From NCBI GenBank assembly GCA_023245355.1, contig JAHFKN010000003.1, positions 121,368 to 185,367 on the forward strand: 64,000 bases of DNA. Reading direction: 5' to 3'. Shown here piece by piece: positions 4,062 to 60,792 of the stretch. A program made the translations under genes and the position numbers. The DNA is from Candidatus Gottesmanbacteria bacterium (GTDB lineage: Bacteria > Patescibacteriota > Microgenomatia > UBA10105 > UBA927). The first letter of the stretch is position 1, and every line of letters starts with the position of its first letter. A model generated the notes under the pieces. That model ran no database searches. It was not told the DNA's origin and was given only the letters and a program-made list of their open reading frames with translations.

Positions 4062-5696
4062 ATGACCTGGTGGAAACGCACATGGCACGATTGGTACAGA
4101 CGTTTTGACGGACTTACTGATCTCCAGCGCGTCATCGTATTATTTTTCTGTATCGTTATCCTGCATGTACCATCACTGCAGCATGTGTATCTTGCCGCAG
4201 TAAATTACGATGACGGGAGAGATATACTGGTGGCGTCGCATATACTCCGAAACGGGGAATTTCCATTACGAGGCCCATTTGCAGCAGGAGGGTTCAATAT
4301 ACTGCGCAATTCTCCGCTTTATTATTATTTGATTGCATTGTTTCATCTGGCAGGCGGGTATAGTTTAGCCGGAACCTACCTGTTGTGGATACTCGTGTCG
4401 GTATGCTCCGTAAGCCTGCTTTATAGCGTTATAGTATATATTTGGCATGATAGGAACATAGCCGTTGTTTCTGCAGTTTTGGCCGGTATACACCCTTTGT
4501 ATTTTGCCGTCAGCGGTACGATCGCTCAGCCGTATTTATTGACGATTCTGACTTCCATAATGCTGGTATTGATATTTAAACCCGAGCACAGGCTCTCCGA
4601 TGTGCTTTGGATGATTGTTGTTCTCTCTGTCGGCATGCACATTCATCTGAGCATGGTGTTATTGGTGCCGGTTATCAGCGTATGGATAGGTATAACCAGT
4701 TACCGGTTGTATATGAGATCACACAGGTCCATCGAAGTACTACTATGGCCCGTTGCGGTAGCATTCGTATCGGCCGTGTATTGGTTTGCCCTTACGTTCC
4801 GGCAAAGCGTGATGGATCAGGCAGACGCGGTCCTTTCAGGAAAATTTATAAGTTTACATGAAATTCAGTCTGCCTTTCCCCGGATTATAGCAACGTGGAT
4901 TGACCTTGTCGTCGGTATTGACCGTCAGAATACACCCGTATTTATAGGTATGGTAAGTATCATTATCGGGGCAATGTTTTTTTCGGGCATACTGTATCCC
5001 GGAAAAACGCGGCGTGAACACCTCTATTGGTTGGCATTATTGTTTATCACGCCGCTATATTATTCGATATTTTATCGGGGAACAGTCGTAAACGGCTATT
5101 TCATAGTGCTGCTTCCTATCATGATGGTTGTCGGCGCGGGGGTTATACACATGATCTCCCGGATACATATCTATGCAGGAGCGGGTACGGTTTTGTTCGT
5201 AGGATATGTTTTTGTACAATCTGCGCTGCCGCAGATATTCCCGTTTGCACAGATACATATCTTTGAATCGATGCAGTCCGTTGTTCATGCCATAGATATT
5301 AATCAGCAGGTGAGAGCAGGGAAGACGGATGAAGCGGCGCGGGATGATTTTTGGATTGCATTTGTATCAAGTGAGCCGGGAGTATTGGTGGACAGCTGGC
5401 AAACCGGTTCTTTCTGGTATCTCCTTGAACGGAGGATCCGCCATGTATATGTAAGGGTGGTGGATGCCGATATAAATTTTACCGTGCGTAACAGGCACCC
5501 GAAGTATCTGTATCTTATATGTGATGTCCGTGTTTTGCGGATGTATTCCGATATCGATGATTGCGGATATTGGGTCGATCAGATGAATCAGATGTATGGG
5601 CTGTCAAGCGAAGAATTGAGAACAATAAATCCGTATGTGCTCTACGGAATTCCGTTGTCTCCGGAGTCTTTAGAGAAGCTCCCTCAAATTTTCTAA
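4062..5696 (+). CDS. GT-C fold glycosyltransferase, ArnT/PMT-like (paralog 2)
   Basis: 544 aa, clearly paralogous to 1938-3569 (YDDGRDILVASHILRNGEFPLRGPFAAGGFNILRNSPLYYY vs YDESRDMLVARHIVEYGDWLWRGPLASGSMNALMNSPVYYY). Confidence 0.55.
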   Translation: MTWWKRTWHDWYRRFDGLTDLQRVIVLFFCIVILHVPSLQHVYLAAVNYDDGRDILVASHILRNGEFPLRGPFAAGGFNILRNSPLYYYLIALFHLAGGYSLAGTYLLWILVSVCSVSLLYSVIVYIWHDRNIAVVSAVLAGIHPLYFAVSGTIAQPYLLTILTSIMLVLIFKPEHRLSDVLWMIVVLSVGMHIHLSMVLLVPVISVWIGITSYRLYMRSHRSIEVLLWPVAVAFVSAVYWFALTFRQSVMDQADAVLSGKFISLHEIQSAFPRIIATWIDLVVGIDRQNTPVFIGMVSIIIGAMFFSGILYPGKTRREHLYWLALLFITPLYYSIFYRGTVVNGYFIVLLPIMMVVGAGVIHMISRIHIYAGAGTVLFVGYVFVQSALPQIFPFAQIHIFESMQSVVHAIDINQQVRAGKTDEAARDDFWIAFVSSEPGVLVDSWQTGSFWYLLERRIRHVYVRVVDADINFTVRNRHPKYLYLICDVRVLRMYSDIDDCGYWVDQMNQMYGLSSEELRTINPYVLYGIPLSPESLEKLPQIF

Positions 5697-5703
5697 AGCA
5701 AAT

Positions 5704-6315
5704 TCAGAATAATCCTATCTGCCGGGTGGAGTCTATGATTTCCTTGGGGTACGAAAAGTCGACAGCGAAGCTCGATACATTGTTCCAATTGTCGATGTAT
5801 TTAAGCTCTTTGTTTACCACGCCGTAGTCATACAGGTCACGGGTGAGCCAAACGTCCGCTTCGCAGTAATCTTTAAGTTTTTTGAGGCTTTCCTCGTCGT
5901 GCTGGTTCCAATATACAACCGCGTTGGTACCGACGTCCGTTTTGTCCCGCCCGAGTGTATATTTGCCCAGCGTCGACAAACTCAGCGCATGGCCGAGTTT
6001 GGCGCGGACGTGAGCCATGATGTCAAAATGCGGAAGCTTGGAAAAGTGTTCCGGTGCGTACGGGATCAGTGCCGGCACATCAAATTTCAGCGTGTTAAAT
6101 CCTATGATGCGTTTGGCCTGCTTCATGATGTCCCACAACTCCGTCAGGTCTTCTTCCCAGAAGCTGCGCATTTCGCCCGAAATTTCGTGCTGGTTTTCGT
6201 CTACCTGCCGGATATATGCGCCCACGATTGATACGCCCAATAAGCTGGGATCGTTTCCCTCAACTTCAGAAAACAGCCGTTTGGTTTCAATGTCGAAGAT
6301 AACTTCAGTGATCAT
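5704..6315 (-). CDS. DEDD-family 3'-5' exonuclease domain protein
   Basis: Exo motifs FDIET (I), GFNTLKFDVP (II) and YCEADV (III). The ORF-track start at 6357 is probably over-extended; the ATG giving MITEVIFDIET is at 6315. Confidence 0.5.
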   Translation of the reverse strand: MITEVIFDIETKRLFSEVEGNDPSLLGVSIVGAYIRQVDENQHEISGEMRSFWEEDLTELWDIMKQAKRIIGFNTLKFDVPALIPYAPEHFSKLPHFDIMAHVRAKLGHALSLSTLGKYTLGRDKTDVGTNAVVYWNQHDEESLKKLKDYCEADVWLTRDLYDYGVVNKELKYIDNWNNVSSFAVDFSYPKEIIDSTRQIGLF

Positions 6316-6461
6316 AGGGTTAGCGATAGTATAATAAATACCGTGGTGTAAGGGCAAGCCGGAGCAATGGAACGGTCTGAGACAGGTAATTTTGGGGTGC
6401 CGTGCATGGCTTTCGTGCTATGGACAGCACGTGCGGTTTTGGTACAATAATTATTCCTCGT

Positions 6462-7634
6462 ATGAAAAAAACTCTGTGGATTATCGCACTTATCGCCGTC
6501 GTCAACGCGCTAGGATACGGGATTATTATCCCGATTTTATATTCGTATTCGAGAAAATTCGGCCTTACCGATTTTGAAAACGGTTTGCTGTTTTCCGTTT
6601 TTTCGGTGTGCCAGTTTATCGCTACTCCGTTAATCGGCAGGCTTTCCGATGCGTACGGCCGCCGGCCGCTCCTTTTGGTGTCGCTGTTGGGCACGGTCGG
6701 ATCGTTTGTCCTGATGGCCGTTGCACCGAATGCATTCTGGCTTTTCGTCGCACGTGCGCTCGACGGAATTACGGCTGGTAATATCCCTGTGGCTCTTGCC
6801 GTCATTTCCGATACCACCGAGCCCAAAGACAGGGCGAAGGGGTTCGGCATTATCGGTGCGTCGTTCGGGTTCGGTTTTACGTTCGGCCCGGCGATTTCAG
6901 CGCTCACGATTCATTGGGGAACGGCGGTGCCGTTTTTGATAGCGGGAAGTATTGCGTTCATCGCGTTTCTTCTCACACTCGTATTACTTCCTGAAACCAA
7001 TACCCACAAGGGAATTCAGGTGACGAGGCATGTGTTTGATTTCCGGCATCTTTTCCATGCGCTGATCGATCCTGCTATCGGGAAAACCCTGCTGGTTTCA
7101 TTCCTCGTGATGCTTGGGTTTTCCATCTTTATCTATGCGTTCCAGCCGATGTCCGTTGAGCTGCTGCACCTTTCCGCCCGTGAAATATCGGTTATCTTTA
7201 CGGCAATCGGTATCGTAGGCCTGATTTCTCAAGGTGCGGTGATTCCGCGGGTGATCCGCCGTTTCGGCGAACGGCCCGTACTCGTCGGGTCTCTTATTTC
7301 TTCCGTCATTACGTTTGCGCTGTTATATATGACGCGTTCCTATCCGCTCTTTGTAACGATCGTGCTTGTTCAGGCGTTTGCAAACGGATTTTCCAACCCG
7401 GTGATTCAGGCGCTGCTCTCCAAAGAAGCAGACGCGAAAAGTCAGGGTGCGATTATGGGAATCAATGCATCGTACCAAAGCATCGGCCAGATTGTGGGTC
7501 CGGTCATAGGCGGCCTGCTGGCAACCATATTTATCCCGTTGCCGTTTCTGGCTGCGTCAGCCTCGATGCTTGTAGCTGCCGTATTGGCAGTCGGGATGCT
7601 TCACAAACATATACGGCAACAGTCGCTTGTCTAG
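6462..7634 (+). CDS. MFS transporter
   Basis: About 390 aa from MKKTLWIIAL, with 12 predicted TM segments and an MFS motif-A-like GRLSDAYGRRP. The upstream GTG at 6402 looks like an over-extension. Confidence 0.65.
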   Translation: MKKTLWIIALIAVVNALGYGIIIPILYSYSRKFGLTDFENGLLFSVFSVCQFIATPLIGRLSDAYGRRPLLLVSLLGTVGSFVLMAVAPNAFWLFVARALDGITAGNIPVALAVISDTTEPKDRAKGFGIIGASFGFGFTFGPAISALTIHWGTAVPFLIAGSIAFIAFLLTLVLLPETNTHKGIQVTRHVFDFRHLFHALIDPAIGKTLLVSFLVMLGFSIFIYAFQPMSVELLHLSAREISVIFTAIGIVGLISQGAVIPRVIRRFGERPVLVGSLISSVITFALLYMTRSYPLFVTIVLVQAFANGFSNPVIQALLSKEADAKSQGAIMGINASYQSIGQIVGPVIGGLLATIFIPLPFLAASASMLVAAVLAVGMLHKHIRQQSLV

Positions 7635-7692: not shown

Positions 7693-8490
7693 ATGAAATC
7701 ACTGCTCGAACGAACTCCGTATAGCCCGAAAGAAGAACTGAGCCGGAATAGCCTCATCATCACGATAGACGGCTCCACGACTGCAGGGAAGCGCCTTGTC
7801 GCAGAACGGCTTGCCGAACGGTACAACCTCACGGTTTTCAATACCGGTACGACGATACGTTCGTTGGCTCTGCTTGCGATAGAAAACAATCTGGTCGGAA
7901 CGGATAATAATAACGTGACCAATATTCCGGTCGATTTTGTGGAGCGCATGGTGGATTTCTATAAGGCAATGCCGGAGAAGCTGGCTGTCGTAAAACCACG
8001 GGAGGGCGAGCACACTGCACGGATCATGGTCGGCGCCCGGGATATGAGGGGTGAACTTCTGGCGTTTCGGAAACAGAAAGCGGTTGACAACCTGGCGGCT
8101 GTTATAGCCTCCAGCCCGCTGGTGCGGGATCAGTTATACCAGCTTTGGCGCGGTGCGGTGAAAGAACTGGGAGGCGCGATCGTGATCGGAAGAAAAACCG
8201 GCTTGGATTTATATCCGGATGCGCCGATAAAATTGTATCTTTTTGCAAGTCCGGAAGCATCGGCCGCGTACCGCGTGACGCATGACCCGACGTCACTTAT
8301 GCATCAGAGCACGGAAGAACTGTATATCCGGGAGCGTGACGGTCAGGACCGTGTCAACGGATTGTTGGACAGACCTGCGGATGCCCTCGCAGTCGATACC
8401 AGTTCGTATATAAGCCGTGACGGGAAGGGAATGTTGGAATTAGAAGAAAAGATTGCTTCTCACATCGACAGCCGCTTTATTATCAAATAA
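7693..8490 (+). CDS. Cytidylate kinase-like (CMP/dCMP kinase family) protein
   Basis: IITIDGSTTAGKRLVAERLAE resembles the Cmk ITIDGPSGAGKGT P-loop region (degenerate). At 265 aa it is longer than typical Cmk. Confidence 0.45.
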   Translation: MKSLLERTPYSPKEELSRNSLIITIDGSTTAGKRLVAERLAERYNLTVFNTGTTIRSLALLAIENNLVGTDNNNVTNIPVDFVERMVDFYKAMPEKLAVVKPREGEHTARIMVGARDMRGELLAFRKQKAVDNLAAVIASSPLVRDQLYQLWRGAVKELGGAIVIGRKTGLDLYPDAPIKLYLFASPEASAAYRVTHDPTSLMHQSTEELYIRERDGQDRVNGLLDRPADALAVDTSSYISRDGKGMLELEEKIASHIDSRFIIK

Positions 8491-9058
8491 TCCGTGCACG
8501 GGTATTTGAGCGGACGATATCCAGCGGGTGCTTCGTGCCTTTTTCCCAAAGTTTAAATCCGTCGTAATTGTATTCCGGGGTTTTGAGTTTTTTGTCGGTG
8601 TGCATCTGTTCGATTTCTGCGGGCGTAAAAAAACCGTAATTTTGTATTTCTTCAGCCTGCATTCTGAACGTTCCGTCGAGTATGGTTCCGCAGAATGCGT
8701 AGCCCACGTGCATTTTCACCTTTCCGTTTCGCGCGCCGTTTTCGCCTGTCGGAGTTTCATGGATCCCGTTTTTCTCATAGTAATGCCATACGCCGAGCAG
8801 CTGATCCAGGCGGATATCCAGGTCCAGTTCTTCTTTGGCTTCCCGTAGTGCTGCAATTTCCGGTTCTTCACCCATCAGATCGTCGACATAGCCGGCAATA
8901 GGCGACCACTTGCCGCCGTGTTCATCCAGATCCTGAACCATCAGGAGGCGTCCGCGTTCGTCGGACAGAAATATGGAAACGGATGCTAAACTGCTGCTGC
9001 GTTCGGCCCAAGCTGGTTTTTCCGGGATCGGGACAGGTGATTGTTCTTTTGTAGCCAT
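8483..9058 (-). CDS. NUDIX hydrolase
   Basis: Nudix box GYVDDLMGEEPEIAALREAKEELDLDI matches Gx5Ex7REUxEExGU. Confidence 0.6.
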   Translation of the reverse strand: MATKEQSPVPIPEKPAWAERSSSLASVSIFLSDERGRLLMVQDLDEHGGKWSPIAGYVDDLMGEEPEIAALREAKEELDLDIRLDQLLGVWHYYEKNGIHETPTGENGARNGKVKMHVGYAFCGTILDGTFRMQAEEIQNYGFFTPAEIEQMHTDKKLKTPEYNYDGFKLWEKGTKHPLDIVRSNTRARII

Positions 9059-11885: not shown

Positions 11886-12290
11886 ATGCTGACGGTGTAT
11901 CATGTAGGTATGAATTCTTATGCTGATGTGCTGCGTTCTTTCGGAGGCAAGCTGCATGTTTCCTCACCTCTTAAGCGCTATGTTACCAGGGTAGTGGCGA
12001 AGTTGCCGGAAGAGATACGGACCCATATTACGTCCGATTGTTGGTTCCTGGGAAGCAGGGAAGATGCATGGGCGTATACGTTTACCGGTGATGAACTGGC
12101 AGGGAAGCACCTCATCATTTTAAGTGATGAACTGAGCCGCCAGTCCGATACCGATATCGAGTGGACGATCATGCATGAGATCGGGCATGTCATATTGGGT
12201 CACCGTAACTCCATTTTAGTTACACAGTCGAGGAAAGAAATCGCCCGTCAGGAGAAGGAAGCAGACGCGTTCGCACGCACATACGTATGA
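11886..12290 (+). CDS. ImmA/IrrE-family (COG2856-like) zinc metallopeptidase domain protein
   Basis: HEIGHVILGH (HExxH) followed by QEKEADAFA, matching the ImmA/IrrE HExxH...E..A..FA motif pair. Confidence 0.5.
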   Translation: MLTVYHVGMNSYADVLRSFGGKLHVSSPLKRYVTRVVAKLPEEIRTHITSDCWFLGSREDAWAYTFTGDELAGKHLIILSDELSRQSDTDIEWTIMHEIGHVILGHRNSILVTQSRKEIARQEKEADAFARTYV

Positions 12291-13003
12291 AACGGATTGC
12301 GGTTATAGAGGAGTTGCAAAAACATAAGAATCCCGACAGAGCGGTGCTCTTGTCGCGCTATTTCAAAACGGGCAAAGGAGAGTATGCACAGGGAGATATA
12401 TTTTTGGGGCTGACGGTTCCGTTGCAGCGGCAGATTGCCAAAACGTATCGCAGTCTGGCTCTCTCCGATATAGAAACGCTTCTTACCAGTGCCATTCATG
12501 AATACCGTTTAACCGCGCTTATTATTCTTACTCTGCAGTTTAGTGCGTCCGCACCGGTACGGCAGAAAGAACTTTACGATTTTTACCTTGCGCATACAGA
12601 CTATATAAATAACTGGGATCTCGTCGATCTGTCTGCCCCCAGAATTATCGGCGGGTTTCTGTTGGAGAGAAAACCGAAGCGGCGGGTCCTTTACCGGCTT
12701 GCGAAGTCGGAAGTTCTTTGGGAACGGAGGATTGCGGTCATGGCGACGTTTCCGTTTTTGCGGGCAGGGGATTTTGCCGATACGTTTGCTATTTCAACGA
12801 TACTTATTCATGATTCTCACGATCTTATCCATAAAGCGGTCGGATGGATGCTCCGGGAAGCGGGCAAGGTAAATCAGTCAGCGGAGGAAGTCTTTTTAGA
12901 AAAATACAGCAGCACCATGCCGCGTACCATGCTCCGGTATGCGATTGAGAAGTTTTCCGACGATAAGCGGGCATACTACCTGTCGCGCCGCAGCGCCTTG
13001 TAG
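12287..13003 (+). CDS. DNA alkylation repair enzyme (AlkC/AlkD HEAT-repeat glycosylase family)
   Basis: Matches recalled AlkD landmarks: NNWDLVD, WERRIAVMA, HKAVGWMLREAGK, LRYAIEK. ATGA overlap with the upstream gene. Confidence 0.65.
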   Translation: MKRIAVIEELQKHKNPDRAVLLSRYFKTGKGEYAQGDIFLGLTVPLQRQIAKTYRSLALSDIETLLTSAIHEYRLTALIILTLQFSASAPVRQKELYDFYLAHTDYINNWDLVDLSAPRIIGGFLLERKPKRRVLYRLAKSEVLWERRIAVMATFPFLRAGDFADTFAISTILIHDSHDLIHKAVGWMLREAGKVNQSAEEVFLEKYSSTMPRTMLRYAIEKFSDDKRAYYLSRRSAL

Positions 13004-13117: not shown

Positions 13118-13687
13118 ATGATTTTGTCTGACCGGGATATCACCAATGCGCTCCGCACAGGGAGAATTACCATAAGTCCCAAGATTGATAGTAAGACGCA
13201 GCTTGGTTCATGTTCCGTTGATTTGCGGTTAGGTAAACAGTTTCGTATTTTTAACCACAGCAAGTTTGCCTATATTGACCCCAATAACCCGAAGTTATCA
13301 ACCGACATGATGGCGGAAGTCAAAATCAAAGACGGCGAGCCGTTTATCCTGCAGCCCGGTGATTTTGTCCTCGCGACAACCATGGAAACCGTAACGCTTC
13401 CCAATGACTTAGTAGGCAGACTCGAGGGCCGTTCCAGTCTCGGGAGATTGGGAATCGTCGTGCATTCGACCGCGTCAATTTTTGACCCCGGATGGCAGGG
13501 AATGGTCGTTATGGAACTGGGAAACATGGGTCGTATGCCGGTAGCCTTATACCCGGGCATGCGGATTTGCAGCATGACGTTTGAAGAATTATCATCTCCT
13601 GCCCAGGTGCCGTATTCCAAAAAAAGGGCGGCAAAATATATCGGGCAAAACACTCCGTTAGCCAGTAAAATTACTCAGGACAAATAA
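13118..13687 (+). CDS. dcd: dCTP deaminase
   Basis: MILSDRDITNALRTGRITISP...SVDLRLG...GWQG...LYPG is typical of Dcd/dUTPase-fold dCTP deaminase. 189 aa from ATG 13118; the ORF-track start at 13007 is over-extended. Confidence 0.75.
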   Translation: MILSDRDITNALRTGRITISPKIDSKTQLGSCSVDLRLGKQFRIFNHSKFAYIDPNNPKLSTDMMAEVKIKDGEPFILQPGDFVLATTMETVTLPNDLVGRLEGRSSLGRLGIVVHSTASIFDPGWQGMVVMELGNMGRMPVALYPGMRICSMTFEELSSPAQVPYSKKRAAKYIGQNTPLASKITQDK

Positions 13688-15216
13688 TGGATTGGCCAAT
13701 TCTGTATAAGCAGGTATTGCATGTCAAAGACCCCGCAAATCCCGTCGGGGTTGCCATCATGTGGACGGAACGTCAGGTGGTCGCCGACATGCTCAAAGAC
13801 GAGAACTACTGCGCTATCGGCAACCTGTATTCGTCTGCCGGAATATCCGCCATGATCCGCAATGTGTATGCCAATCCGCATGTGCGGAAAATCATACTGT
13901 GGGGCGCGGATCTTTCCCGAAGCGGCCAGGCTCTTATGGCACTTATGGCAAACGGAGTCGATGAAAACTTTTTTATCATCGGAGATGAAAAGGGCGGCCA
14001 GATAGAAAAAGAAATCGGCCGCGAAGCGATTGATCTGTTCCGCTCTTCCGTCGAGGTGATTAACCTGCGCGGCAAGTCGCCGGATGAACTCCGGAAAACG
14101 GTGGCAAAATACAGCGGTGAAACGCCGGTGCCGTTTACGGAGTCCAAAAAATTCCCGACCAGCAGGCCCAAGCCGTTTACCTTTCCCTCAGAACAAATCG
14201 GATTCCGTATTCACGGTAACACGGCGGCCCAGACCTGGCTTAAGATTCTTCACAATATTATCCGGTACGGCCGTAATAAAACGACGCGATATACGCAGGA
14301 AAACGAACTGAAGGAGTTGTTGAACGTGATGGCGGTCGTGTACGAAGAAGATCCGGAAAAGCCCTACCTTCCGAAGTTTTTTCCGTTTTCCGAAAAGGAT
14401 CTTGCCTCCTATTACCCGCAGGTGCTCTCTGCCAAACAAATTCCCGGCATAGCGTATACGTACGGGCAGCGGCTCCGTGATCATGACGGCATAGATCAGA
14501 TTCAGAATATTATCGACTTAATCAAAAACCGGCCGTTCAGTAAAAAAATGGTCGCGTTTACGGCAAAAATCAAAGAGGATTGGTCGGTGGTCAATAAAGG
14601 CGACACGCCGTGTCTTACACAAATTCTCTGCAGCATTCAGGACGGAAAACTGTTTATGACGACGCATTTCCGGAGCCAGGATATGGTGCACGGCTGGCCG
14701 CGCAACGTATTCAGTCTGCGCAAACTCCAGAAACTTATCTGTGACGAATCCGGGGTTCCCATGGGTGCATTCGTCATGATTACGCATAGTGCGCACATAT
14801 ACAGTGATGATTATGAGCTGGTAGAAAAAATCCTCAAGGAAAATTATGAAAAAGAATTAGGCTACACCAGCCGCCAGATGTTCGAAGATGATCCGCGTGG
14901 CAATATCACGATTGAGATAGAAGAAATAGGGACGAAACCGGTCGGACGGCCGACGAAGTATGCGGTGAAACCGACAGATAAAGAGTATGAAATCGTGCTG
15001 AAAATGTATGCGCCCAACGGCGGATTGTTGCTCAAAGAATGGCGCGGTAAAACGGCAATGGATATATATATTGATCTTATCAATATCGGCGACTATCTCG
15101 TATTACCGAGCCACGCTATATACATAGGCAGCGAGTTGCAGCGAGCGGAATACTATATCAAGCTCGGTATTGCGGAACTATTCAACCAGGATCCTGCGGC
15201 CAACAAGGCCCTGTAA
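13687..15216 (+). CDS. thyA: Thymidylate synthase (ThyA-type) with N-terminal MtrA-like domain (fusion)
   Basis: The C-terminal half has the ThyA core (DTPCLTQILCSIQDGKLFMTTHFRSQDMVHGWPRNVFSLRKLQ, cf. PCH...FQF...LSCQLYQRS.D..LG.PFNIAS). The N-terminal ~130 aa resemble tetrahydromethanopterin S-methyltransferase subunit A (WPIL...V.DP.NPVGVA...NP.VRKIILWGAD.S.SGQAL). TAATG overlap with dcd. Confidence 0.6.
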   Translation: MDWPILYKQVLHVKDPANPVGVAIMWTERQVVADMLKDENYCAIGNLYSSAGISAMIRNVYANPHVRKIILWGADLSRSGQALMALMANGVDENFFIIGDEKGGQIEKEIGREAIDLFRSSVEVINLRGKSPDELRKTVAKYSGETPVPFTESKKFPTSRPKPFTFPSEQIGFRIHGNTAAQTWLKILHNIIRYGRNKTTRYTQENELKELLNVMAVVYEEDPEKPYLPKFFPFSEKDLASYYPQVLSAKQIPGIAYTYGQRLRDHDGIDQIQNIIDLIKNRPFSKKMVAFTAKIKEDWSVVNKGDTPCLTQILCSIQDGKLFMTTHFRSQDMVHGWPRNVFSLRKLQKLICDESGVPMGAFVMITHSAHIYSDDYELVEKILKENYEKELGYTSRQMFEDDPRGNITIEIEEIGTKPVGRPTKYAVKPTDKEYEIVLKMYAPNGGLLLKEWRGKTAMDIYIDLINIGDYLVLPSHAIYIGSELQRAEYYIKLGIAELFNQDPAANKAL

Positions 15217-15259
15217 TTTTGTTGACTTTCTTTTGTCCGGTACCCCATACTGGACTTTG

Positions 15260-16036
15260 ATGTTTGATTACCTTCTGGGATTGATATTGTTAGGATTTGG
15301 AATCCGCAGTCACCCTGCTGTATTGGGAGAGACGGATGTTACCGTTGAATCGAGCGCGTCCGCCGATGCAAGTACGAGTGCCCGCCGGAAAACGGCTGGT
15401 GCTCTGCGGGTTATGCGTCCTAAATTTACTGCGGAAGAACAGGAAGCGTTTCAGAAAGAGCGCGCGAAGCGTGAAGAGAACTTAGAGCGCATAGGAAAGC
15501 TGCGTATAGAGTCGCTTCATGCGGATTTTGCGGCAAAGCAAAAGGCCAGAAGTGAGAAAGATAAAACGACCAAATCCGCACTGGAAGCAAAAGTGAAAGC
15601 ATTTACGGACCAGAAGAAGAAAGAAAAACTGCTGGCACTTTCCGGAAAATATCAGACATCGGTAGTCGCTCGGCTTGCCGTAATGCAGCAGAAACTGGAG
15701 TCTATGACGGTATTACTGGACAGGATTACCGCGGCAGCTGGCGCGCTCAAAGTTCAGGGGAAGGATGTGTCCGTCATCGAATCCCACGTAAGCAGCGCTC
15801 AGGCAAAAGTTGCGAGCGCCATAACTGCAGTTACTGATCTTGCGTCCGCTACGCCGACGTCATTTTCGATAGCGACGGAAGCCAGCGCGAAAGGAGACGT
15901 GATGAAAGCGATAGAAACCCTCAAGTCCCAGCTTGAGCCGGCAAACACGGCATTTGCTCAGGCGCATGAAGCGGTCAAACTGGCGCTTGAGGGTATAGAG
16001 GAATATACCGACGCTACAGAGGAGGCAGCGAAATGA
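15260..16036 (+). CDS. Hypothetical membrane-anchored coiled-coil protein
   Basis: N-terminal TM (LLGLILLGFGI) followed by a long K/E/A-rich helical region. Start moved to ATG 15260 to avoid overlap with thyA. Confidence 0.4.
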   Translation: MFDYLLGLILLGFGIRSHPAVLGETDVTVESSASADASTSARRKTAGALRVMRPKFTAEEQEAFQKERAKREENLERIGKLRIESLHADFAAKQKARSEKDKTTKSALEAKVKAFTDQKKKEKLLALSGKYQTSVVARLAVMQQKLESMTVLLDRITAAAGALKVQGKDVSVIESHVSSAQAKVASAITAVTDLASATPTSFSIATEASAKGDVMKAIETLKSQLEPANTAFAQAHEAVKLALEGIEEYTDATEEAAK

Positions 16037-19727: not shown

Positions 19728-19868
19728 TTTCTCTGGCAAAGCCAGATCCCGCTTCGCGGGACAATTTCCGCTCTCTGTGTAAATGTGCTCCTTCCTAGTG
19801 CCAATGCTACTCTTGTCAGATTCTTATTGTCAAGAAAGGCCACGTGTGGTAGAACCCATAGATGCAAT

Positions 19869-20513
19869 ATGAAAGAACAACATGAATACATAGCGGTGAT
19901 GGGGACGATGGGGAGCGGTAAAACGACTGCAGCAAACCTGCTTGCCAAAGAGCTGAATTTCACCCTTATAGAAGAAAATGTAAAGGAAAATGCATTTTTG
20001 CCGAGGTTTTATAAAGACATGAGCAGATGGGCATTTCATTCGCAGGTATTTTTCCTGATGGAAAAAATACGGCAGATGATAGAGGCAAAGACACTCTTGG
20101 GAAAAACCTCAGTCGTACAGGATACGCCCATTACGCAGGACGTCTATTCGTATGCCCAAGCACAGCACAAGTTGGGCAATATGGATGACGCCGAGTGGGC
20201 GCTGTACCAGAAAATTTATCATGAATTTACGCCCCATTTTCCTGCTCCTGACCTTATTGTTTTTTTGGATACGTCCATTCCGGTTATAGAGCAGCGGATT
20301 GCATCCCGCGGACGGGGATTCGAGCAGACAATTCCTACGGATTACCTCACGTTACTGGACAGACTGAACCGCAAATGGCTGGAACAAAACACAAACATTC
20401 CGGTTGTTGTCGTGCATACGGACACCCTTGATATCACAAGAAACAGGGATGCACAGGAACAATTTACCTCGATCGTGCGGCACGCACTGCATAGCAAAGG
20501 TAGTGTACACTAA
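19869..20513 (+). CDS. Deoxynucleoside kinase (dAK/dGK/dCK family)
   Basis: IAVMGTMGSGKTTAANLLAKELNFTLIEE and downstream motifs of the dNK family. Start at ATG 19869 (MKEQHEY); the ORF-track start at 19785 is over-extended. Confidence 0.6.
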   Translation: MKEQHEYIAVMGTMGSGKTTAANLLAKELNFTLIEENVKENAFLPRFYKDMSRWAFHSQVFFLMEKIRQMIEAKTLLGKTSVVQDTPITQDVYSYAQAQHKLGNMDDAEWALYQKIYHEFTPHFPAPDLIVFLDTSIPVIEQRIASRGRGFEQTIPTDYLTLLDRLNRKWLEQNTNIPVVVVHTDTLDITRNRDAQEQFTSIVRHALHSKGSVH

Positions 20514-20519
20514 TTAAAT

Positions 20520-21179
20520 ATGATTCATATTCCCGGCATCGCCGTCTGTATATGGGATTTTGACGGCACATTGTACCGGCCGACTCCGGCACTTACGCAG
20601 GCGATTGTCGAGGCAGATTATGAGTTGATTATGCGTCATACCGGCTGGGATAAAGCAAAGACTATCGAAGAATTTCATAAAATATTTAAGATAAAGACCC
20701 CCAGTAGCACCGAAACAGCGGCGATACTGGCCGGTATTTCCGTGCAGGAAGCAGCGATTGAGTGTGAACTCTATAAAGACCGCCGGCCGTTTTTGTCCCG
20801 TGATCAACGACTTATCGATATGTTTAATGCATTAAATGGCTATACCCATTATTTTTTGGTAAATGGTATCCAGGAAAAAGTGCGTGAGTCACTTGCTGTT
20901 TTAGGAGTACCGCCGGACATATTCCGTGAAATAGTGACTGCAGAGCTAGTGGGGGTTAATAAACCACAGCTAGACGGTTTTCGATATATTCTCAAGAAAA
21001 CCGGATTGCCGCCGGAAGCCCATCTGATGATCGGAGACCGTGAGGCGGTGGATTTGGTGCCGGCCAAGTCGGCAGGTATGCGCACATGTCTGGTAAGTTG
21101 GGGCACGACAAAACCGCAGACAGACAGTGTTGACAGCGTTATCGAAGACATATACACTGTACCGGAATTACTTGTATGA
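20520..21179 (+). CDS. HAD-superfamily hydrolase (possible nucleotidase/phosphatase)
   Basis: Motif I WDFDGTLY, motif IV GDREAVD. 219 aa. Confidence 0.55.
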   Translation: MIHIPGIAVCIWDFDGTLYRPTPALTQAIVEADYELIMRHTGWDKAKTIEEFHKIFKIKTPSSTETAAILAGISVQEAAIECELYKDRRPFLSRDQRLIDMFNALNGYTHYFLVNGIQEKVRESLAVLGVPPDIFREIVTAELVGVNKPQLDGFRYILKKTGLPPEAHLMIGDREAVDLVPAKSAGMRTCLVSWGTTKPQTDSVDSVIEDIYTVPELLV

Positions 21180-24204: not shown

Positions 24205-25509
24205 ATGGACCACGAAATTTCCCGGCTTATCGCGTCTGAAGCCAAGCGTCAGCAGGATGTACTGGAAATGATCCCGTCAGAAAACTACGCGTCTTTGGCC
24301 GTACGCGAAGCATTGGGGTCAGTATTAACCAACAAATATTCCGAGGGGTATCCGCATAAGCGGTATTATCAGGGCAACCGTTTCGTTGATGAAATAGAAG
24401 ATATCGCCATAAACCGCGCCAAAAAATTGTTTATGGTCCCTCATGTGAACGTACAGCCGTATTCGGGATCTCCGGCAAATGCTGCCGTATTTTTTGCGCT
24501 GCTTCAACCCAAAGATGCCATTATGGGCCTGAAGCTTTCGGCAGGAGGACACCTCACCCACGGACATCCGGATATCACGTTTTCGGGTAAATATTTTGCA
24601 TCGAGCCAGTATGATGTGGAAGAAGACGGGATGATTAACCTTGAAAAAGTAGCGGTAATGGCAAGAACGGTGAAGCCGCGTATGATCGTCGTCGGGACGA
24701 CAGCGTATCCCAGGGTTTATGACTGGAGGGCATGGCGGCAGATCGCTGATGACGTAGGTGCGTACCTGCTTGCGGATATTTCACATATTGCAGGGCTCGT
24801 CGTCGGGGGCGTTCATCCGTCTCCGGTGCCGTTTGCTGATGTCGTGATGACGACCACTCACAAGTCCCTCCGGGGGCCGCGGGGCGCTATGCTTATGGTT
24901 ACCGATACCGGGTTAACAAAAGACCCCGGAATGGCCGAAAAAATCGATAAGGCCGTGTTTCCGGGTCTCCAGGGAGGCCCGCATGACAATGTAACTGCCG
25001 CGATAGCAGTGGCGCTTGAAGAGGCAAGTCAGCCCTCGTTTACCACATACGCGCATCAGGTAGTAAAAAACGCATCCGTGCTTGCCGAAACGCTGTTAAA
25101 CAAGGGAATCGCCCTTACGACCGGGGGAACGGATAACCACCTTATGGTAATCGATCTCCGTCCGCAGAAAGTGATCGGCAATATCGTCGCCGAAGCACTG
25201 GAAGTTGCCGGCATTGTCGTAAACAAAAATAGCGTGCCCCACGATTCGAATCCGCCGTTTTATCCTTCCGGCGTGCGCCTGGGGACACCCGCCATTACGA
25301 CCCGGGGAATGAAAGAAGAGGAGATGAAAAAGATCGGGAGCTGGATAGCAACCGTCATTTCTGAAGTAAGTCATTATCGTTTACCGGACACAAAAGAAGG
25401 AAGACTGGGATTTCTTTCCGGCGTAAAGAAAGAATTGCAGGTAAATAACACATTGCTGAATATAAAAGATGAGGTAGGTGTGCTGTGCAAAAATTTTCTG
25501 GTACCATAA
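24205..25509 (+). CDS. glyA: Serine hydroxymethyltransferase
   Basis: Full-length SHMT, 434 aa, with VTTTTHKSLRGPRGA (PLP-Lys region) and the typical N-terminus. Confidence 0.9.
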   Translation: MDHEISRLIASEAKRQQDVLEMIPSENYASLAVREALGSVLTNKYSEGYPHKRYYQGNRFVDEIEDIAINRAKKLFMVPHVNVQPYSGSPANAAVFFALLQPKDAIMGLKLSAGGHLTHGHPDITFSGKYFASSQYDVEEDGMINLEKVAVMARTVKPRMIVVGTTAYPRVYDWRAWRQIADDVGAYLLADISHIAGLVVGGVHPSPVPFADVVMTTTHKSLRGPRGAMLMVTDTGLTKDPGMAEKIDKAVFPGLQGGPHDNVTAAIAVALEEASQPSFTTYAHQVVKNASVLAETLLNKGIALTTGGTDNHLMVIDLRPQKVIGNIVAEALEVAGIVVNKNSVPHDSNPPFYPSGVRLGTPAITTRGMKEEEMKKIGSWIATVISEVSHYRLPDTKEGRLGFLSGVKKELQVNNTLLNIKDEVGVLCKNFLVP

Positions 25510-38588: not shown

Positions 38589-39899
<1,311 letters not shown>

Positions 39900-43009: not shown

Positions 43010-43732
43010 ATGAATCAGGGAAAAAAGCTGGTGTTGTTTGATATAGACGGCACGCTTATCCGTGCACAAAGAATGGAAGACAATCTCCAGCGGTTTCCGT
43101 ATGCCATAAAAAAAGTGTTCGGTGTGGATATCGGCGTTTTTACGATGGCACGGTGGAAGTCAAAAAATTTTAACGGTATGGGCGACCGGTACATTCTCCG
43201 GGAGTTTACAAAAGAGTATGGCATCACAACGGATGCGCTCCTGGACAGGATTGGTGATATCGGTGATGCGTTTGCCGAGTATCTGGATAGCATAAAAAAC
43301 GGCGGGCCTTCATATGCAGTAATTCCCGACGCGAAAACGCTGGTTAATAAAGTCATCGCAGCAGAACACCTGTCTGAGGGCGTGCTTACCGGGAATCTGG
43401 GACCCGCAGCAAGCTGGAAGCTCCGGTCTGCGGGACTACCGGATATCGCATTCGGCGTCTATGGTCACGAAGCGGATGAACGGAATGACTTGGCCAGGCT
43501 TATTCCGCCGAAAGCAAAGGCGTATTTCGGACGGGAGTTTGCGCCCCGTGACATAATTATCATCGGTGATACGGTGCGTGATGCGGAATGTGCGCGTGTT
43601 ATCGGAGCGACGGTGATTATCGTGTCGACGGGGTGGGAGGTTACGAAAGAAGATTTTGCAGAGTTTCCTCCTGATCTTCACGTCGACTCACTCATGGACG
43701 AAAAGGTGCTTACCTTGTTAGGATTACAGTAA
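43010..43732 (+). CDS. HAD-superfamily hydrolase (paralog B)
   Basis: LVLFDIDGTL motif I and GDT.RD motif IV. Start at ATG 43010. Confidence 0.55.
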   Translation: MNQGKKLVLFDIDGTLIRAQRMEDNLQRFPYAIKKVFGVDIGVFTMARWKSKNFNGMGDRYILREFTKEYGITTDALLDRIGDIGDAFAEYLDSIKNGGPSYAVIPDAKTLVNKVIAAEHLSEGVLTGNLGPAASWKLRSAGLPDIAFGVYGHEADERNDLARLIPPKAKAYFGREFAPRDIIIIGDTVRDAECARVIGATVIIVSTGWEVTKEDFAEFPPDLHVDSLMDEKVLTLLGLQ

Positions 43733-44646
43733 TGAAACTATTTTCGGGAACATCAAATCAGCCCCTTGCAGCTGCAGTCGCAGATGCGCTTCATATTCCG
43801 CTGGGGGACGCGGAAATTACCCGTTTTATAGATAACGAATGCCGCGTTTTTGTGCGCGAGAGCGTTTCCGGTCACGAAGTGTTCGTTCTGCAGTCGCTGT
43901 CGGAAGTGGCAGATCAGAATCTTGTGGAGGTATGTCTTTTGGGTTCCGCCCTCAAAGATCTCGGAGCTAAAAAAGTGACTGCCGTCATCCCATGGATGGG
44001 CTACAGCAAGCAGGACAAGGCGTTCCGCAAAGGGGAAGCCATATCAGCCCAGTTAGTAGCCAAATTTATAGAGGCTGCCGGCTTTGATGCGGTGATTACG
44101 GCAGAGCTGCATTCGGAAAACGTCGTACCGTATTTCCGTATTCCGGTAACTGAGCTGTCGACACATACCATATTGGGTGCCGGGTTATTTTCTGCCCACC
44201 CGGATATGTCCAAGTCCGATGTTATCGTTGTTTCCCCGGACAAAGGCGGAAAATCCCGCTCGGAACGGTTTGCAGAGGAAATAGGCGTATCGGTCGTGTA
44301 CCTTGCCAAAACCCGCGATTTGGCAACCGGTACGGTGCAGGTGAGGGGAACGGACGGTGATGTGTCAGGGAAAACAGTTATCATGTTTGACGATATCATC
44401 AACACCGGTTCAACTGCTCTTAAAACAAGTGAGTTTGTAAAACAAAACGGAGCTACGTCCGTATATTTTCTGGCGACGCACGCGGTGCTGGCCGGTTCGG
44501 CACCGCAGGATTTAGAGCGGAGCGTGATAGATCAGGTCGTTGTGACGGACACAATCGCAATCCCCAAACATAAGCGGTTTCCCAAGCTTATTGTGGCATC
44601 GGTTTCCTCGCTTCTTGCTGATGCAATCAAAGGGCAAACCAAGTAA
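43732..44646 (+). CDS. prs: Ribose-phosphate pyrophosphokinase
   Basis: PRPP synthetase hallmarks (DDIINTGST PRPP-binding loop). 304 aa. Confidence 0.8.
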   Translation: MKLFSGTSNQPLAAAVADALHIPLGDAEITRFIDNECRVFVRESVSGHEVFVLQSLSEVADQNLVEVCLLGSALKDLGAKKVTAVIPWMGYSKQDKAFRKGEAISAQLVAKFIEAAGFDAVITAELHSENVVPYFRIPVTELSTHTILGAGLFSAHPDMSKSDVIVVSPDKGGKSRSERFAEEIGVSVVYLAKTRDLATGTVQVRGTDGDVSGKTVIMFDDIINTGSTALKTSEFVKQNGATSVYFLATHAVLAGSAPQDLERSVIDQVVVTDTIAIPKHKRFPKLIVASVSSLLADAIKGQTK

Positions 44647-48323: not shown

Positions 48324-50318
48324 CTAACCCTCCTTTTTTAACGGTATTGTTATTGATACGGTCGTCCCGTGATTATCGGCAACCGGACTTTTGAGGGTAA
48401 CGGTTCCGCCCCAGCCTTCTACATATGACTTTACTATAAATAACCCCAGTCCTGCACCCTGTGCGTCGGTAAGCCTTCCGGTTGTGGTGCGGTAAAACTT
48501 GGTAAACAGTTTATTCTGTTCTCCGACGGGTATCCCTATACCCGTATCGGTCACGGCGATCTCGACGGCGTTGGGGTGGCGGAGTATATCGACGGTAACG
48601 GAGCCCCCCGGAGTATTGTATTTGACGGCGTTGGACAGAATATTTTCAATTGCCCCGTTTAAGTGTTTCGGGTCGACGGTTGCATGGACGGAAGTCAGTT
48701 TGCTGTTTAGATGTATTTGTATTTTCTGGCGTCTGGCAAAGTCCGCGTTTTCCGAAATCCTAGCCGATATAACCGCTACGACATCTGTTTTTTCCGGATA
48801 GTTCGGCAGTTTTCCCTGAATAATGTGCGCGATGTCCAGAAGTTCGTTTACCGATTTTACCATCAGACGGTTGCTTTCAAATATGCGCATGAGTTTTTCC
48901 CTGATGGCCGGCGGGAGTTTTATGTTCGGATCAATAATCGATTCCAGGTTCCAGCGTATAGCCGTAAGCGGGGAGCGGAGCTGGTGAGCCGCGGTCATAA
49001 GAAATTCATCTTTGGCCCGTTCGAGTTCCTTGCGTTCCGTTATATCCCGGAAATTTATTACGATGGCCTGTACGGACGGATCAAACAGCAAGCTTCTGCC
49101 GATGGTTTCTATCCATATCCACCTGCCGTCCTTATGTTTCATGCGGTACTGTCCGAAAATTGACTCTTTCGGATTCATGACTACGTCTGATAAATCCTTT
49201 TTGGCTTTTTCTACATCTTCCGAATGGATGAATGAAAATCCGCTCCGTCCCAGTACTTCTTCCGGTTTATACCCTAGGACCGTATACGTCGACGGACTGG
49301 CATACGTTATGACGGAGCCCGGGTCTGTCAGAACGACCGCATCGGTATTTTTTTCGATAAGCGCCTGGAACCTCCGTTCACGGGTGTATAACGTCTGATC
49401 GGTATGCTTCCGGTCTTCGACTGCGGCGGCTACCGTAAGTTTGGTTACCCCGATGATCACCATAAATATCTGAAGCTGCTGTAGGGCTTCATTCGTCGTT
49501 GATGCATGTGACATAAACGGACCGGATCCGTGCATGGTCGCATAGGTTGTAACCATCATAATAATCGTAAGCAGGGTTGCTGTTTCCCGGAGCTCAAAAC
49601 GGAATGCCGACCAGATAAGCGGAAGGATAAACAGATACGGATGTGGAAATCTCAGCGGGATAATGATGTAGAAAATTCCGAGCAGAGCAAAACACAACAG
49701 GACAAACTCCGCAGCTTTCAGCGGTTGTATGCTGACTCTTGGGCGTGCATACCACAGAAGCAGTACGGGGGTGAAAACGACAGCGCCGCCCATGTCTCCT
49801 AACCACCAGGTAAGCCAGACCTGATGGGCGAGTGAGGGATCCAACAGTCTTGTACTGATGAGCATGCCGATACCGATTGCAGCGCTGATGGCAGTGGCAA
49901 GCCCGGCAACAAACGCAAACCTGACGACATCCATCGGCCGTTCAAAAACCTTTGTGCCGCTGGCAAACCTGTTTATACACCACGTGGCAATGATAGCTTC
50001 CAATGAGTTGCCGACGGCAATACCCAGGGACGAAAAAAGCATGCCGGATGTCGTCAGATTTACAAAAAATGAACCGATCAGTATGAGCGGCCACATACGT
50101 ATGCCGAAGATAAGCAGTGCCGCAATTGCAAATCCCGTGGGAGGCCAGATAGCCGAAACGTTTGGGTTGATGCTGGCAAATTCCAACCCTATTTTTCCGA
50201 GGATAAAATAGATGACGGCCAGTCCTGCTAAAAGGAAAAGCGATCCTGGATTCGGGACGGCAGTTTTTTTCACGGTCTTATTTAGTTGTACCCCGTTTGT
50301 TTGTGAAATACAACACAA
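48324..50318 (-). CDS. Sensor histidine kinase (MASE1-like membrane sensor + PAS + HisKA + HATPase_c)
   Basis: N-terminal polytopic MASE1-like region, PAS (FQALIEKNTDAVVLTD), H-box AAHQLRSPLTAI, and G1/G2 boxes (DTGIGIP, GAGLGL). Confidence 0.8.
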   Translation of the reverse strand: MCCISQTNGVQLNKTVKKTAVPNPGSLFLLAGLAVIYFILGKIGLEFASINPNVSAIWPPTGFAIAALLIFGIRMWPLILIGSFFVNLTTSGMLFSSLGIAVGNSLEAIIATWCINRFASGTKVFERPMDVVRFAFVAGLATAISAAIGIGMLISTRLLDPSLAHQVWLTWWLGDMGGAVVFTPVLLLWYARPRVSIQPLKAAEFVLLCFALLGIFYIIIPLRFPHPYLFILPLIWSAFRFELRETATLLTIIMMVTTYATMHGSGPFMSHASTTNEALQQLQIFMVIIGVTKLTVAAAVEDRKHTDQTLYTRERRFQALIEKNTDAVVLTDPGSVITYASPSTYTVLGYKPEEVLGRSGFSFIHSEDVEKAKKDLSDVVMNPKESIFGQYRMKHKDGRWIWIETIGRSLLFDPSVQAIVINFRDITERKELERAKDEFLMTAAHQLRSPLTAIRWNLESIIDPNIKLPPAIREKLMRIFESNRLMVKSVNELLDIAHIIQGKLPNYPEKTDVVAVISARISENADFARRQKIQIHLNSKLTSVHATVDPKHLNGAIENILSNAVKYNTPGGSVTVDILRHPNAVEIAVTDTGIGIPVGEQNKLFTKFYRTTTGRLTDAQGAGLGLFIVKSYVEGWGGTVTLKSPVADNHGTTVSITIPLKKEG

Positions 50319-60789: not shown

Positions 60790-60792
60790 CCT

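Follow-up and report, generated by a model that had tools for sequence, protein, structure and literature searches.

A three-domain ThyA-type protein, with MtrA-like and DUF4346 domains flanking a short methanogen-type core, as a putative thymidylate synthase of Gottesmanbacteria and related Patescibacteria

Introduction

The locus described here lies on a stretch of 64,000 nucleotides from Candidatus Gottesmanbacteria bacterium (assembly GCA_023245355.1, contig JAHFKN010000003.1, forward-strand positions 121,368 to 185,367), which we call the window. Directly behind a gene for dCTP deaminase (dcd), the window holds a gene for a protein of 509 amino acids (aa), in which a thymidylate synthase (ThyA) core is placed between an MtrA-like domain at the N-terminus and a PterinBD-DUF4346 domain at the C-terminus. 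In the best reading of the sequence, the cell's ThyA-type thymidylate synthase would be encoded by this fusion gene, with all three domains in a single compact polypeptide. Few enzymes are as well studied as thymidylate synthase, which is also a drug target. Other orders of the candidate phyla radiation (CPR) use canonical thyA together with folA, or thyX (PMC11974145), so the type of thymidylate synthase varies within this radiation.

Results

Gene layout and domain architecture

The fusion gene begins exactly where dcd ends. The TAA stop of dcd (13685-13687) shares its final A with the ATG of the fusion gene, giving the one-base overlap TAATG, and a Shine-Dalgarno-like AGGA (13677-13680) stands 6 nt before this ATG. 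These two features suggest that dcd and the fusion gene are translationally coupled, and a consensus scan found no terminator-like site between them. The same scan placed a terminator-like hairpin (15235-15255) with a T-rich tail 19 nt past the stop of the fusion gene, which is likely the operon end. The initial annotation had described a 509-aa frame starting on the dcd TAATG, and the sequence bears this out. It had also let the gene follow a DNA-alkylation glycosylase gene; an AlkD-like gene does lie upstream, and dcd stands between the two. For dcd itself, the open reading frame (ORF) list gave a start at GTG 13007, which we read as over-extended, with ATG 13118 as the apparent start; homologues in 48 of 80 related loci align exactly to the 189 aa that begin there. 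All such counts of loci refer to the best 80 of the relatives that a one-genome-per-species scan found in 280 species genomes.

Table 1 Features of the fusion gene, its surroundings and the rest of the window (positions in the window).
Feature	Position	Strand	Basis
ORF without Pfam match at E<=1e-5, 543 aa	1938-3569		Pfam search
ORF without Pfam match at E<=1e-5, 544 aa	4062-5696		Pfam search
NUDIX gene	8483-9058
AlkD-like gene, upstream of dcd	12287-13003		PF08713
dcd, dCTP deaminase, 189 aa	13118-13687	+	PF22769 E 1.5e-47; TIGR02274 E 4.7e-63
Shine-Dalgarno-like AGGA and TAATG overlap	13677-13689	+	Read from sequence
Three-domain putative thymidylate synthase gene, 509 aa	13687-15216	+	ORF list; three Pfam domains above gathering cutoffs
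N-terminal MtrA-like Rossmann-type domain, aa 1-143	13687-14115	+	PF04208; PDB 5laa; strand/helix order in model
Conserved linker, aa 144-174, motif P..F(P)...P(S/A)E..GF	14116-14208	+	Family alignment and model
ThyA core, short methanogen type, aa 175-400	14209-14886	+	TIGR03283; hhalign; Foldseek; residue conservation
Lys286-Lys287	14542-14547	+	hhalign
Nucleophile Cys309	14611-14613	+	Codons checked
Arg329/Ser330/Asp332	14671-14682	+	Codons checked
Asn340	14704-14706	+	Codons checked
C-terminal PterinBD-DUF4346 domain, aa 401-509	14887-15213	+	PF14251
Insertion in DUF4346, aa ~417-436	14935-14994	+
Terminator-like hairpin and T-rich tail	15235-15265	+	Consensus scan only
Deoxynucleoside kinase (dNK)	19785-20513
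HAD phosphatase	20520-21179
tmk fusion, 376 aa	21445-22575	+	PF05014 and PF02223
glyA	24205-25509
AdoHcy (S-adenosylhomocysteine) hydrolase	38619-39899
Phosphoribosyl pyrophosphate (PRPP) synthetase	43732-44646
MASE1-PAS histidine kinase	48324-50318
Kelch-repeat protein	51461-52474
ORF without Pfam match at E<=1e-5, 471 aa	55729-57144		Pfam search
AAA_21/AAA_15 ATPase, then DUF4276 protein	59641-61377	+
RuBisCO large-subunit homologue, 439 aa	61477-62796	-	PF00016 and PF02788

All three domains of the protein were recognised at statistical significance. The N-terminus matches PF04208 (MtrA) over aa 2-129 (E 3.8e-10, 40.1 bits against a cutoff of 25), which agrees with the MtrA-like N-terminus of the initial annotation. 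For the core, the general family PF00303 gives E 4.3e-19 (69.1 bits against 24.3) with only profile positions 92-227 of 266 matched, and the best ThyA model is the methanogen-type TIGR03283, which is matched end to end (aa 175-377, model positions 3-199 of 201, E 4e-42), whereas bacterial ThyA models match far worse (E about 1e-15). The C-terminus carries PF14251 (PterinBD-DUF4346; aa 425-495, E 9.9e-9, 36.3 bits against a gathering cutoff of 29.6), including its hallmark motifs DPRG and HA.Y.G.EL. The initial annotation had counted the last ~260 aa as ThyA-like; this holds for aa ~175-400, but the last ~100 aa are a third domain of their own.

We built an AlphaFold2 (AF2) model of the 509-aa protein from 131 diverse relatives at 28-49% identity, the same set over which residue conservation was counted, and obtained a pLDDT of 93 and a pTM of 0.90. 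When only 50 close homologues were supplied, the ThyA core was poorly modelled (pLDDT 59.8). The pTM of 0.90, the one basis for a statement on packing, implies that the three domains form one defined compact arrangement in the model. The linker between the first two domains is part of this order, with a pLDDT of 91-93 and a proline (P167) conserved in 85% of the 131 sequences, and its motif recurs in the homologues from Nanoarchaeota and from the locus L144.

The ThyA core

To place the active-site residues, we aligned a profile of the 131 relatives with E. coli ThyA by hhalign. The match has a probability of 98.7%, which validates the E. coli sequence for this use. The catalytic loop reads GDTPCLTQ, and its Cys309 corresponds to the nucleophile Cys146, which is kept in 130 of the 131 relatives. 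The remaining constellation is nearly as constant: Tyr94 (Y259), Arg166 (R329) and Asn177 (N340) have their equivalents in 129 relatives each, Ser167 (S330) and Asp169 (D332) in 125, Tyr209 (Y372) in 122 and His207 (H370) in 116. The two residues next to the catalytic and phosphate-binding positions differ, since E. coli H147 is Leu and Q165 is Phe in the fusion protein.

In E. coli ThyA, the Arg126/Arg127 pair binds the phosphate of dUMP from the partner subunit. These positions are K286/K287 here; among the relatives, the first is Arg in 92 and Lys in 22, and the second is Arg in 73 and Gly in 22. The Lys-Lys pair was found to be specific to the Gottesmanbacteria-type subfamily, most relatives having Arg-Arg.

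Asn177 of ThyA selects uracil, and cytosine-specific homologues have Asp instead. Its equivalent N340 is present in 129 of 131 relatives and in 20 of 20 viral copies examined, and this uracil-type residue and the genomic context together point to dUMP as the substrate.

The part of the enzyme that should meet the folate is far less conserved. Two residues of the para-aminobenzoate pocket could be mapped, L172 and F176, and neither is kept (H335 and R339 here). The TIGR03283 model stops just past the His-x-Tyr strand, so the canonical C-terminal lid lies outside it, and in the fusion protein DUF4346 takes the place of this lid. In the AF2 model, the stretch aa 219-235, from the second core strand to the next helix, has no regular secondary structure, and it may be the place of the classical helix that bears E58. 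A Foldseek search of the PDB returned ThyA, MilA and AfhB.

The N-terminal domain

Against PDB 5laa, an MtrA structure, the N-terminal domain aligns over about 150 residues (E 5e-11), and its alternating order of strands and helices in the AF2 model fits a Rossmann-type fold. MtrA binds cobalamin through the cobalt ligand His84 and a His84-Glu54-Ile111 relay, with further contacts from Asn55, residue 82, Thr53, Lys52-N, Gly57 and Asn64, and with Tyr18 and Val61 sandwiching the base (Wagner et al. 2016, PMC4915002). We verified this residue numbering via His35. In the fusion protein, His84 and the next residue fall in a two-residue deletion, Thr53 is deleted as well, Glu54 is Ser49, Asn55 is Ser50 and Tyr18 is Val10. 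The only contacts kept are Gly57 (G52, 128 of 131) and Asn64 (N59, 115 of 131). The losses run through the family: the His84 loop is two residues shorter than in MtrA in 108 relatives, a His occurs in this loop in only 12 and at no fixed place, Ser or Thr stands in for Glu54 in 112, the Asn55 position is variable and the Tyr18 position is not conserved. Moreover, the MtrA model TIGR01111 scores 45 bits against a cutoff of 249, the domain runs on into the ThyA core with no C-terminal transmembrane helix, and no MtrH or other mtr gene was found in the 64-kb window.

The initial annotation had likened this domain to MtrA as a corrinoid-binding subunit; a corrinoid-binding module was a candidate that we rejected. 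The deletion of His84 and the loss of Glu54 across the 131 relatives do not support corrinoid binding, and ligation in the manner of MtrA appears to have been lost in the whole family. Instead, other residues are nearly invariant, namely W26 (100%), G45, Y48 (94%), G52, R58, N59 and G73. All of them are placed within the loops behind strands 1-3 or shortly past these loops, at the same edge of the sheet that holds the ligand of MtrA; this topological site may therefore serve another ligand or an interface here. After strand 1 there is no GxGxxG or flavodoxin-type phosphate loop, and TLWT with the invariant Trp stands there.

The C-terminal domain and the flanking pair

A sequence search against the PDB found no relative of known structure for the C-terminal region. 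Its hallmark residues are 93-99% conserved (D402 at 99%, G405, H476 at 96%, G481, A487 and Q501), and the Pfam name is what marks the domain as putatively pterin-binding. The Gottesmanbacteria-type subfamily alone has an insertion of ~20 aa, …EIGTKPVGRPTKYAVKPTDKEY…, between the first two DUF4346 strands.

To see where DUF4346 occurs otherwise, we read its partners from the coordinates of NCBIfam models, the flanks being scanned separately. The 390-aa family NF002128 (named 'MtrA') has an MtrA-like region at 116-271 and, adjacent to it, a DUF4346-like region at 284-370; the N-terminal flank of the fusion protein matches its positions 127-265 and the C-terminal flank its positions 295-370. Since the two flanks adjoin there, the ThyA core of the fusion protein looks like an insertion into what is an unbroken pair of domains in the other family. 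The DHPS-like family TIGR00284 also ends in DUF4346 (model positions 415-497, of which 446-494 are matched by the C-terminal flank), and by these models DUF4346 appears to accompany pterin-dependent enzymes.

Matches to canonical ThyA models, and the hhalign alignment, run on weakly as far as the opening strand of DUF4346. In an 837-aa relative (P0196, in a cluster with P0279-P0282), one MtrA-like domain is followed by two units of linker, ThyA core and DUF4346 in tandem; the units share 36% identity (E 1e-66), and the second has Ser for the nucleophile Cys and has lost the YTYG motif. With a single active site left, this protein resembles a pseudo-dimer joined in one chain, and the joint duplication indicates that the ThyA core and DUF4346 belong together.

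Distribution and variant forms

All three Pfam domains recur together in over 120 proteins that are 76-94% identical to the fusion protein; these belong to Gottesmanbacteria, Microgenomates and further Patescibacteria and bear source names such as 'thymidylate synthase' or 'hypothetical'. An exhaustive search of 1.84 billion cluster representatives gave 301 matches at E<=1e-30, and among the best 150 of these nearly all are 450-530 aa long and align end to end at 30-52% identity, so that the three-domain form is essentially universal among them; it occupies at least ~300 clusters at 50% identity. The best 80 relatives in the species genomes come from Gottesman-, Woese-, Roizman-, Chisholm-, Beckwith- and Cerribacteria, Paceibacterota, Saccharimonadales and metagenome-assembled genomes (MAGs) of Chloroflexota, and more members occur in Parcubacteria and Nanoarchaeota. 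Records titled 'uncultured Gammaproteobacteria' or 'Pseudomonadales', which are probably placeholder names of MAGs, were not used for this taxonomy. Some members lie in larger genomes of free-living type that also encode kinases and response regulators; the gene is solitary there. Far from a chance or one-off fusion, this architecture is old and common.

Viruses carry it too. In IMG/VR, 58 viral contigs (L082-L139), some of 60-154 kb, encode the full three-domain enzyme at ~30% identity, and the 20 copies examined keep every family-invariant residue; this retention in all three domains at such distance is strong sequence evidence that each domain is functional. On an 88-kb viral contig (L090), the copy at 4950-6494 lies beside a RusA-like resolvase and the large and small subunits of a class I ribonucleotide reductase (RNR). 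Immediately behind the stop of this copy begins an ORF of 132 aa (6495-6893) that matches no family but is conserved, being present in L112 as well. Among structures of named viruses (BFVD), only the ThyA core found matches.

The architecture also varies by addition. A 733-aa protein of a Nanoarchaeota MAG (P0160/P0278) has an extra C-terminal dCMP/cytidine deaminase domain, four domains in total, and an 862-aa protein (P0255) has a second, degenerate MtrA-like domain at its N-terminus. A natural split seemed to be present in L144 and L145, with separate genes for a 179-aa MtrA part and a 316-aa ThyA-DUF4346 part, but we rejected it: this is one frame with a single TAG, across which the linker homology continues. 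The frame (L144 7359-8951, TAG at 7896-7898) is a close relative of the Nanoarchaeota protein and has the same arrangement in two independent samples; the TAG could reflect amber read-through or recoding, a polymorphism or early decay.

Genomic context

Around the related genes, deoxynucleotide enzymes recur. In the 48 loci with dcd, it lies just upstream of the fusion gene in most; a HAD phosphatase is nearby in 34 of the 80 loci, a fusion of a nucleoside-deoxyribosyltransferase-like domain with thymidylate kinase (tmk fusion) in 31 and dNK in 24. The window shows the same recurring neighbourhood of tmk fusion, dNK and HAD phosphatase, and it also holds cmk, a NUDIX gene and glyA, which encodes serine hydroxymethyltransferase (SHMT). 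The window Dcd is about equally similar to PDB 2qxx/2qlp and to 1xs1, which we take to be the bifunctional dCTP deaminase of M. tuberculosis and the monofunctional enzyme of E. coli, respectively. Possible candidates for the step from dUTP to dUMP are a bifunctional Dcd, the NUDIX protein or a HAD phosphatase.

In 13 distant Patescibacteria loci, a gene for a ~735-aa RNR-like protein stands directly upstream of the fusion gene (for example L043 5096-7303); judged by eye, it would be of the class II, B12-dependent type. The genes topA and dprA recur as neighbours in these loci.

No folA, folD, thyX or dut was found in the 64-kb window, nor any other thymidylate synthase. With small home-made profiles, we found no DHFR- or ThyX-like ORF in the window or in the flanks of the 80 related loci (about 1 Mb in all), and none within 10 kb of the gene in two genomes of free-living type or in the ~5 kb flank of the viral L090 copy.

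Other features of the window

The RuBisCO large-subunit homologue in the window may be of the form II/III-like type, which is known from the nucleotide-salvage pathways of CPR and DPANN organisms; the window also encodes PRPP synthetase and AdoHcy hydrolase. An ATPase (382 aa) and a DUF4276 protein (194 aa) follow each other where the GC content falls to 0.40 from about 0.50, the one pronounced dip in the window; these two genes may have a defence-type role and lie on a small island that was acquired. The Kelch-repeat protein and the MASE1-PAS histidine kinase seemed unusual for a small genome of CPR type, and three large ORFs of the window match no Pfam family.

Discussion

Proposed function of the fusion protein

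In our preferred reading, the product of the fusion gene is a thymidylate synthase, and its core chemistry is almost certainly classical. The dCTP deaminase, with its translational coupling to the fusion gene, would supply dUMP, a methylene-tetrahydropterin would donate the methylene group and hydride to give dTMP and dihydropterin, and the nearby tmk fusion would take up the dTMP. The donor would most simply be methylene-tetrahydrofolate made by the nearby SHMT. The MtrA-fold and PterinBD-DUF4346 domains would act as one pterin-handling module wrapped round the core, which binds or clamps the folate cofactor, and the N-terminal domain would not be a cobalamin methyl carrier. That this module supplies the elements of the cofactor site that the short core lacks seems to us somewhat probable.

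The proposals of the initial annotation fare unevenly in this light. Its link between the fusion and dTMP synthesis is well supported by the conserved architecture, the ThyA active site and the deoxynucleotide context, and the catalytic Cys that it had read in the C-terminal part is indeed there. Of the ThyA residues, those for the nucleophile, phosphate and uracil are about 95-99% conserved; the classical contacts to the folate tail are not. The notion of a cofactor module delivered to ThyA is plausible as a pterin module, given PF14251 and the families NF002128 and TIGR00284, and falls away as a corrinoid module. A reduced genome, which it had made the setting of this route, does not define it: Chloroflexota, larger genomes of free-living type and phage contigs have the same architecture.

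Several points weigh against our reading. On TIGR03283 the protein scores 144 bits, under the equivalog cutoff of 174.55, and its relatives P0125 and P0263, at 164-167 bits, are likewise below it. E. coli residues 1-88, with R21, E58, W80 and W83, have no counterpart in the hhalign alignment, and the candidate position for R21 is uncertain and variable across relatives; by these two findings the catalytic machinery would not be fully canonical. The classical elements of the folate site were accordingly not recovered, as E58, W80 and W83 are unaligned, L172 and F176 are variable and the C-terminus is DUF4346. By target coverage, the top Foldseek match is the phage flavin-dependent dCMP hydroxylase AfhB (9iqu, TMt 0.80), and since this best match is a short-fold enzyme acting on dCMP, a ThyA-like fold alone does not fix the chemistry. 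The contact of the flanking domains with the cofactor site is something we infer and did not observe. Finally, searches of the literature (DUF4346, PterinBD, MtrA with thymidylate synthase or Patescibacteria, AfhB) returned no description of the three-domain architecture and no paper on DUF4346 or PterinBD, and the experimental basis of the Pfam name 'PterinBD' could not be traced; in databases, the architecture is present as strings of Pfam domains under names that include 'thymidylate synthase' and 'DUF4346 domain-containing protein'.

Alternative explanations

The flanking domains could do more than bind the cofactor. In a self-recycling synthase, they would form a built-in dihydropterin reductase other than DHFR, or hold a redox cofactor, so that tetrahydrofolate and not dihydrofolate is returned, and the protein would be a functional analogue of protozoan DHFR-TS or of the net ThyX reaction. 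This would fit with the flanks that we searched, which hold no DHFR- or ThyX-like ORF, with the joining of DUF4346 to two producers of 7,8-dihydropterin (ThyA and the DHPS-like family) and with the carriage of the complete unit by phages, which suggests self-sufficiency. There are precedents as well: DmrB/DmrX are FMN-dependent, and Levin and colleagues reportedly found, in 2004, that the N-terminal segment of H. pylori DHPS has a reductase activity that depends on flavin. However, the TLWT stretch after strand 1 has no GxGxxG or flavodoxin-type phosphate loop, the absence of folA was seen in flanks, and other CPR orders carry folA with canonical thyA, which places FolA-type folate reduction within the radiation. 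We therefore consider self-recycling unlikely. The same low probability applies to the broader claim that the module makes dTMP synthesis self-contained, whether through re-reduction of the dihydropterin in place or through scavenged folate held as a quasi-prosthetic group. At the other extreme, the flanks might have no part in catalysis and serve as scaffold or regulator (oligomerisation, allosteric sensing, docking to enzymes of deoxynucleotide synthesis) while the core binds folate alone. TIGR03283, at 201 positions, ends past His-x-Tyr, which would imply that stand-alone members work without flanks; the MtrA-like domain lacks known ligand contacts, and P0196 has one such domain for two core-DUF4346 units. 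Yet W26 (100%), Y48 (94%), H476 (96%) and D402 (99%) lie in loops like those of ligand sites and persist in phage copies at ~30% identity. Polar and aromatic residues conserved to this degree are expected in a binding or catalytic site rather than in a scaffold, and essentially all of the best 150 cluster representatives have the three-domain form, so we give purely non-catalytic flanks only a slim chance.

The remaining alternatives change the chemistry itself. The protein might be a pyrimidine hydroxymethylase, a hydroxylase or another base modifier on a ThyA fold, as the closest structures by target coverage (AfhB, 9iqu/9iqc) and the presence of the CMP hydroxymethylase MilA among the top matches would allow. 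E58, W80 and W83 cannot be aligned, many copies are phage-borne, and phages often make modified bases with ThyA homologues. This explanation is nonetheless improbable in our view, for the near-universal Asn at the base-selecting position is of the uracil type and not the cytosine-type Asp, the cellular context is the canonical route from dCTP through dUMP and dTMP to dTDP, the window shows no other thymidylate synthase, and the sources annotate the protein as thymidylate synthase. Least credible of all, and very improbable, is an N-terminal domain that binds a corrinoid as MtrA does and relays a one-carbon unit to the ThyA site. The homology with MtrA is significant, two contacts of the tail pocket are kept (Gly57 and Asn64), and some relatives adjoin the RNR gene judged by eye to be of class II, so that cobalamin may be present in their cells. 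But the ligand and relay residues are gone throughout the family, with the Tyr18 of the dimethylbenzimidazole sandwich not conserved, and no mtr gene lies nearby; ThyA chemistry, besides, requires a methylene donor and a hydride, not methyl-cobalamin.

Comparison with known systems

Among known systems, the core is closest to methanogen-type ThyA, with which it shares the short form; it differs in being embedded between the MtrA-like and DUF4346 domains, in its score below the model cutoff and in the K286/K287 pair of the Gottesmanbacteria type. With E. coli ThyA it shares the fold and the catalytic constellation, and most relatives also the Arg126/127 pair, whereas the N-terminal 88 residues, the mapped folate contacts and the lid set the two apart. 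AfhB, dCMP hydroxymethylase and MilA have the same short ThyA fold (TMt up to 0.80) but act on cytosine nucleotides, while the fusion protein keeps the uracil-type Asn and a context that supplies dUMP.

The flanks have parallels of their own. The N-terminal domain has the same Rossmann-type order as MtrA (PF04208; PDB 5laa, 5l8x, 8q3v) and keeps the equivalents of Gly57 and Asn64; without His84, Glu54, the contacts to the corrin and its dimethylbenzimidazole, the membrane helix and an mtr operon, the fusion protein is, as judged from its sequence, not a functional MtrA. NF002128 ('PRK00964.1-6') has the same two flanks directly adjacent, where the fusion protein has the ThyA core between them, and TIGR00284 shares the terminal DUF4346; both are attached to or named after pterin-dependent enzymes, and we found no demonstrated function for either. 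The DHFR-TS of protozoa and plants, with an N-terminal alpha/beta domain, a linker and TS in one chain, is a precedent for fusion with a partner from the folate cycle. However, the N-terminal domain of the fusion protein has no sequence similarity and no credible structural similarity to DHFR, and Foldseek superposes the TS part only (rmsd about 21 A).

Significance

To our knowledge, only two kinds of thymidylate synthase, ThyA and ThyX, are recognised. Since the central chemistry is most likely classical, the protein described here is not a new category of system; it is a conserved, widespread and phage-borne architecture, a third common one, in which a short archaeal-type ThyA core is always flanked by two highly conserved extra domains. 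In large parts of the Patescibacteria, it seems to serve as the thymidylate synthase, and it is also present in Chloroflexota, Nanoarchaeota and many phage contigs. In databases it is labelled 'thymidylate synthase' and in places 'MtrA' or 'DUF4346 protein', and the label 'MtrA' can mislead surveys of methane metabolism.

What the flanking module does bears on how the short archaeal-type ThyA, biochemically poorly known, binds its one-carbon carrier, on the roles of DUF4346 and of bacterial 'MtrA-like' proteins, and on the recycling of folate in organisms and phages where no folA adjoins thyA. If dTMP synthesis should prove self-contained, this would explain the supply of dTMP in organisms with thyA but no folA and in the phages that carry the gene, and it would give a function to DUF4346 and to the 'MtrA' homologues of non-methanogens.

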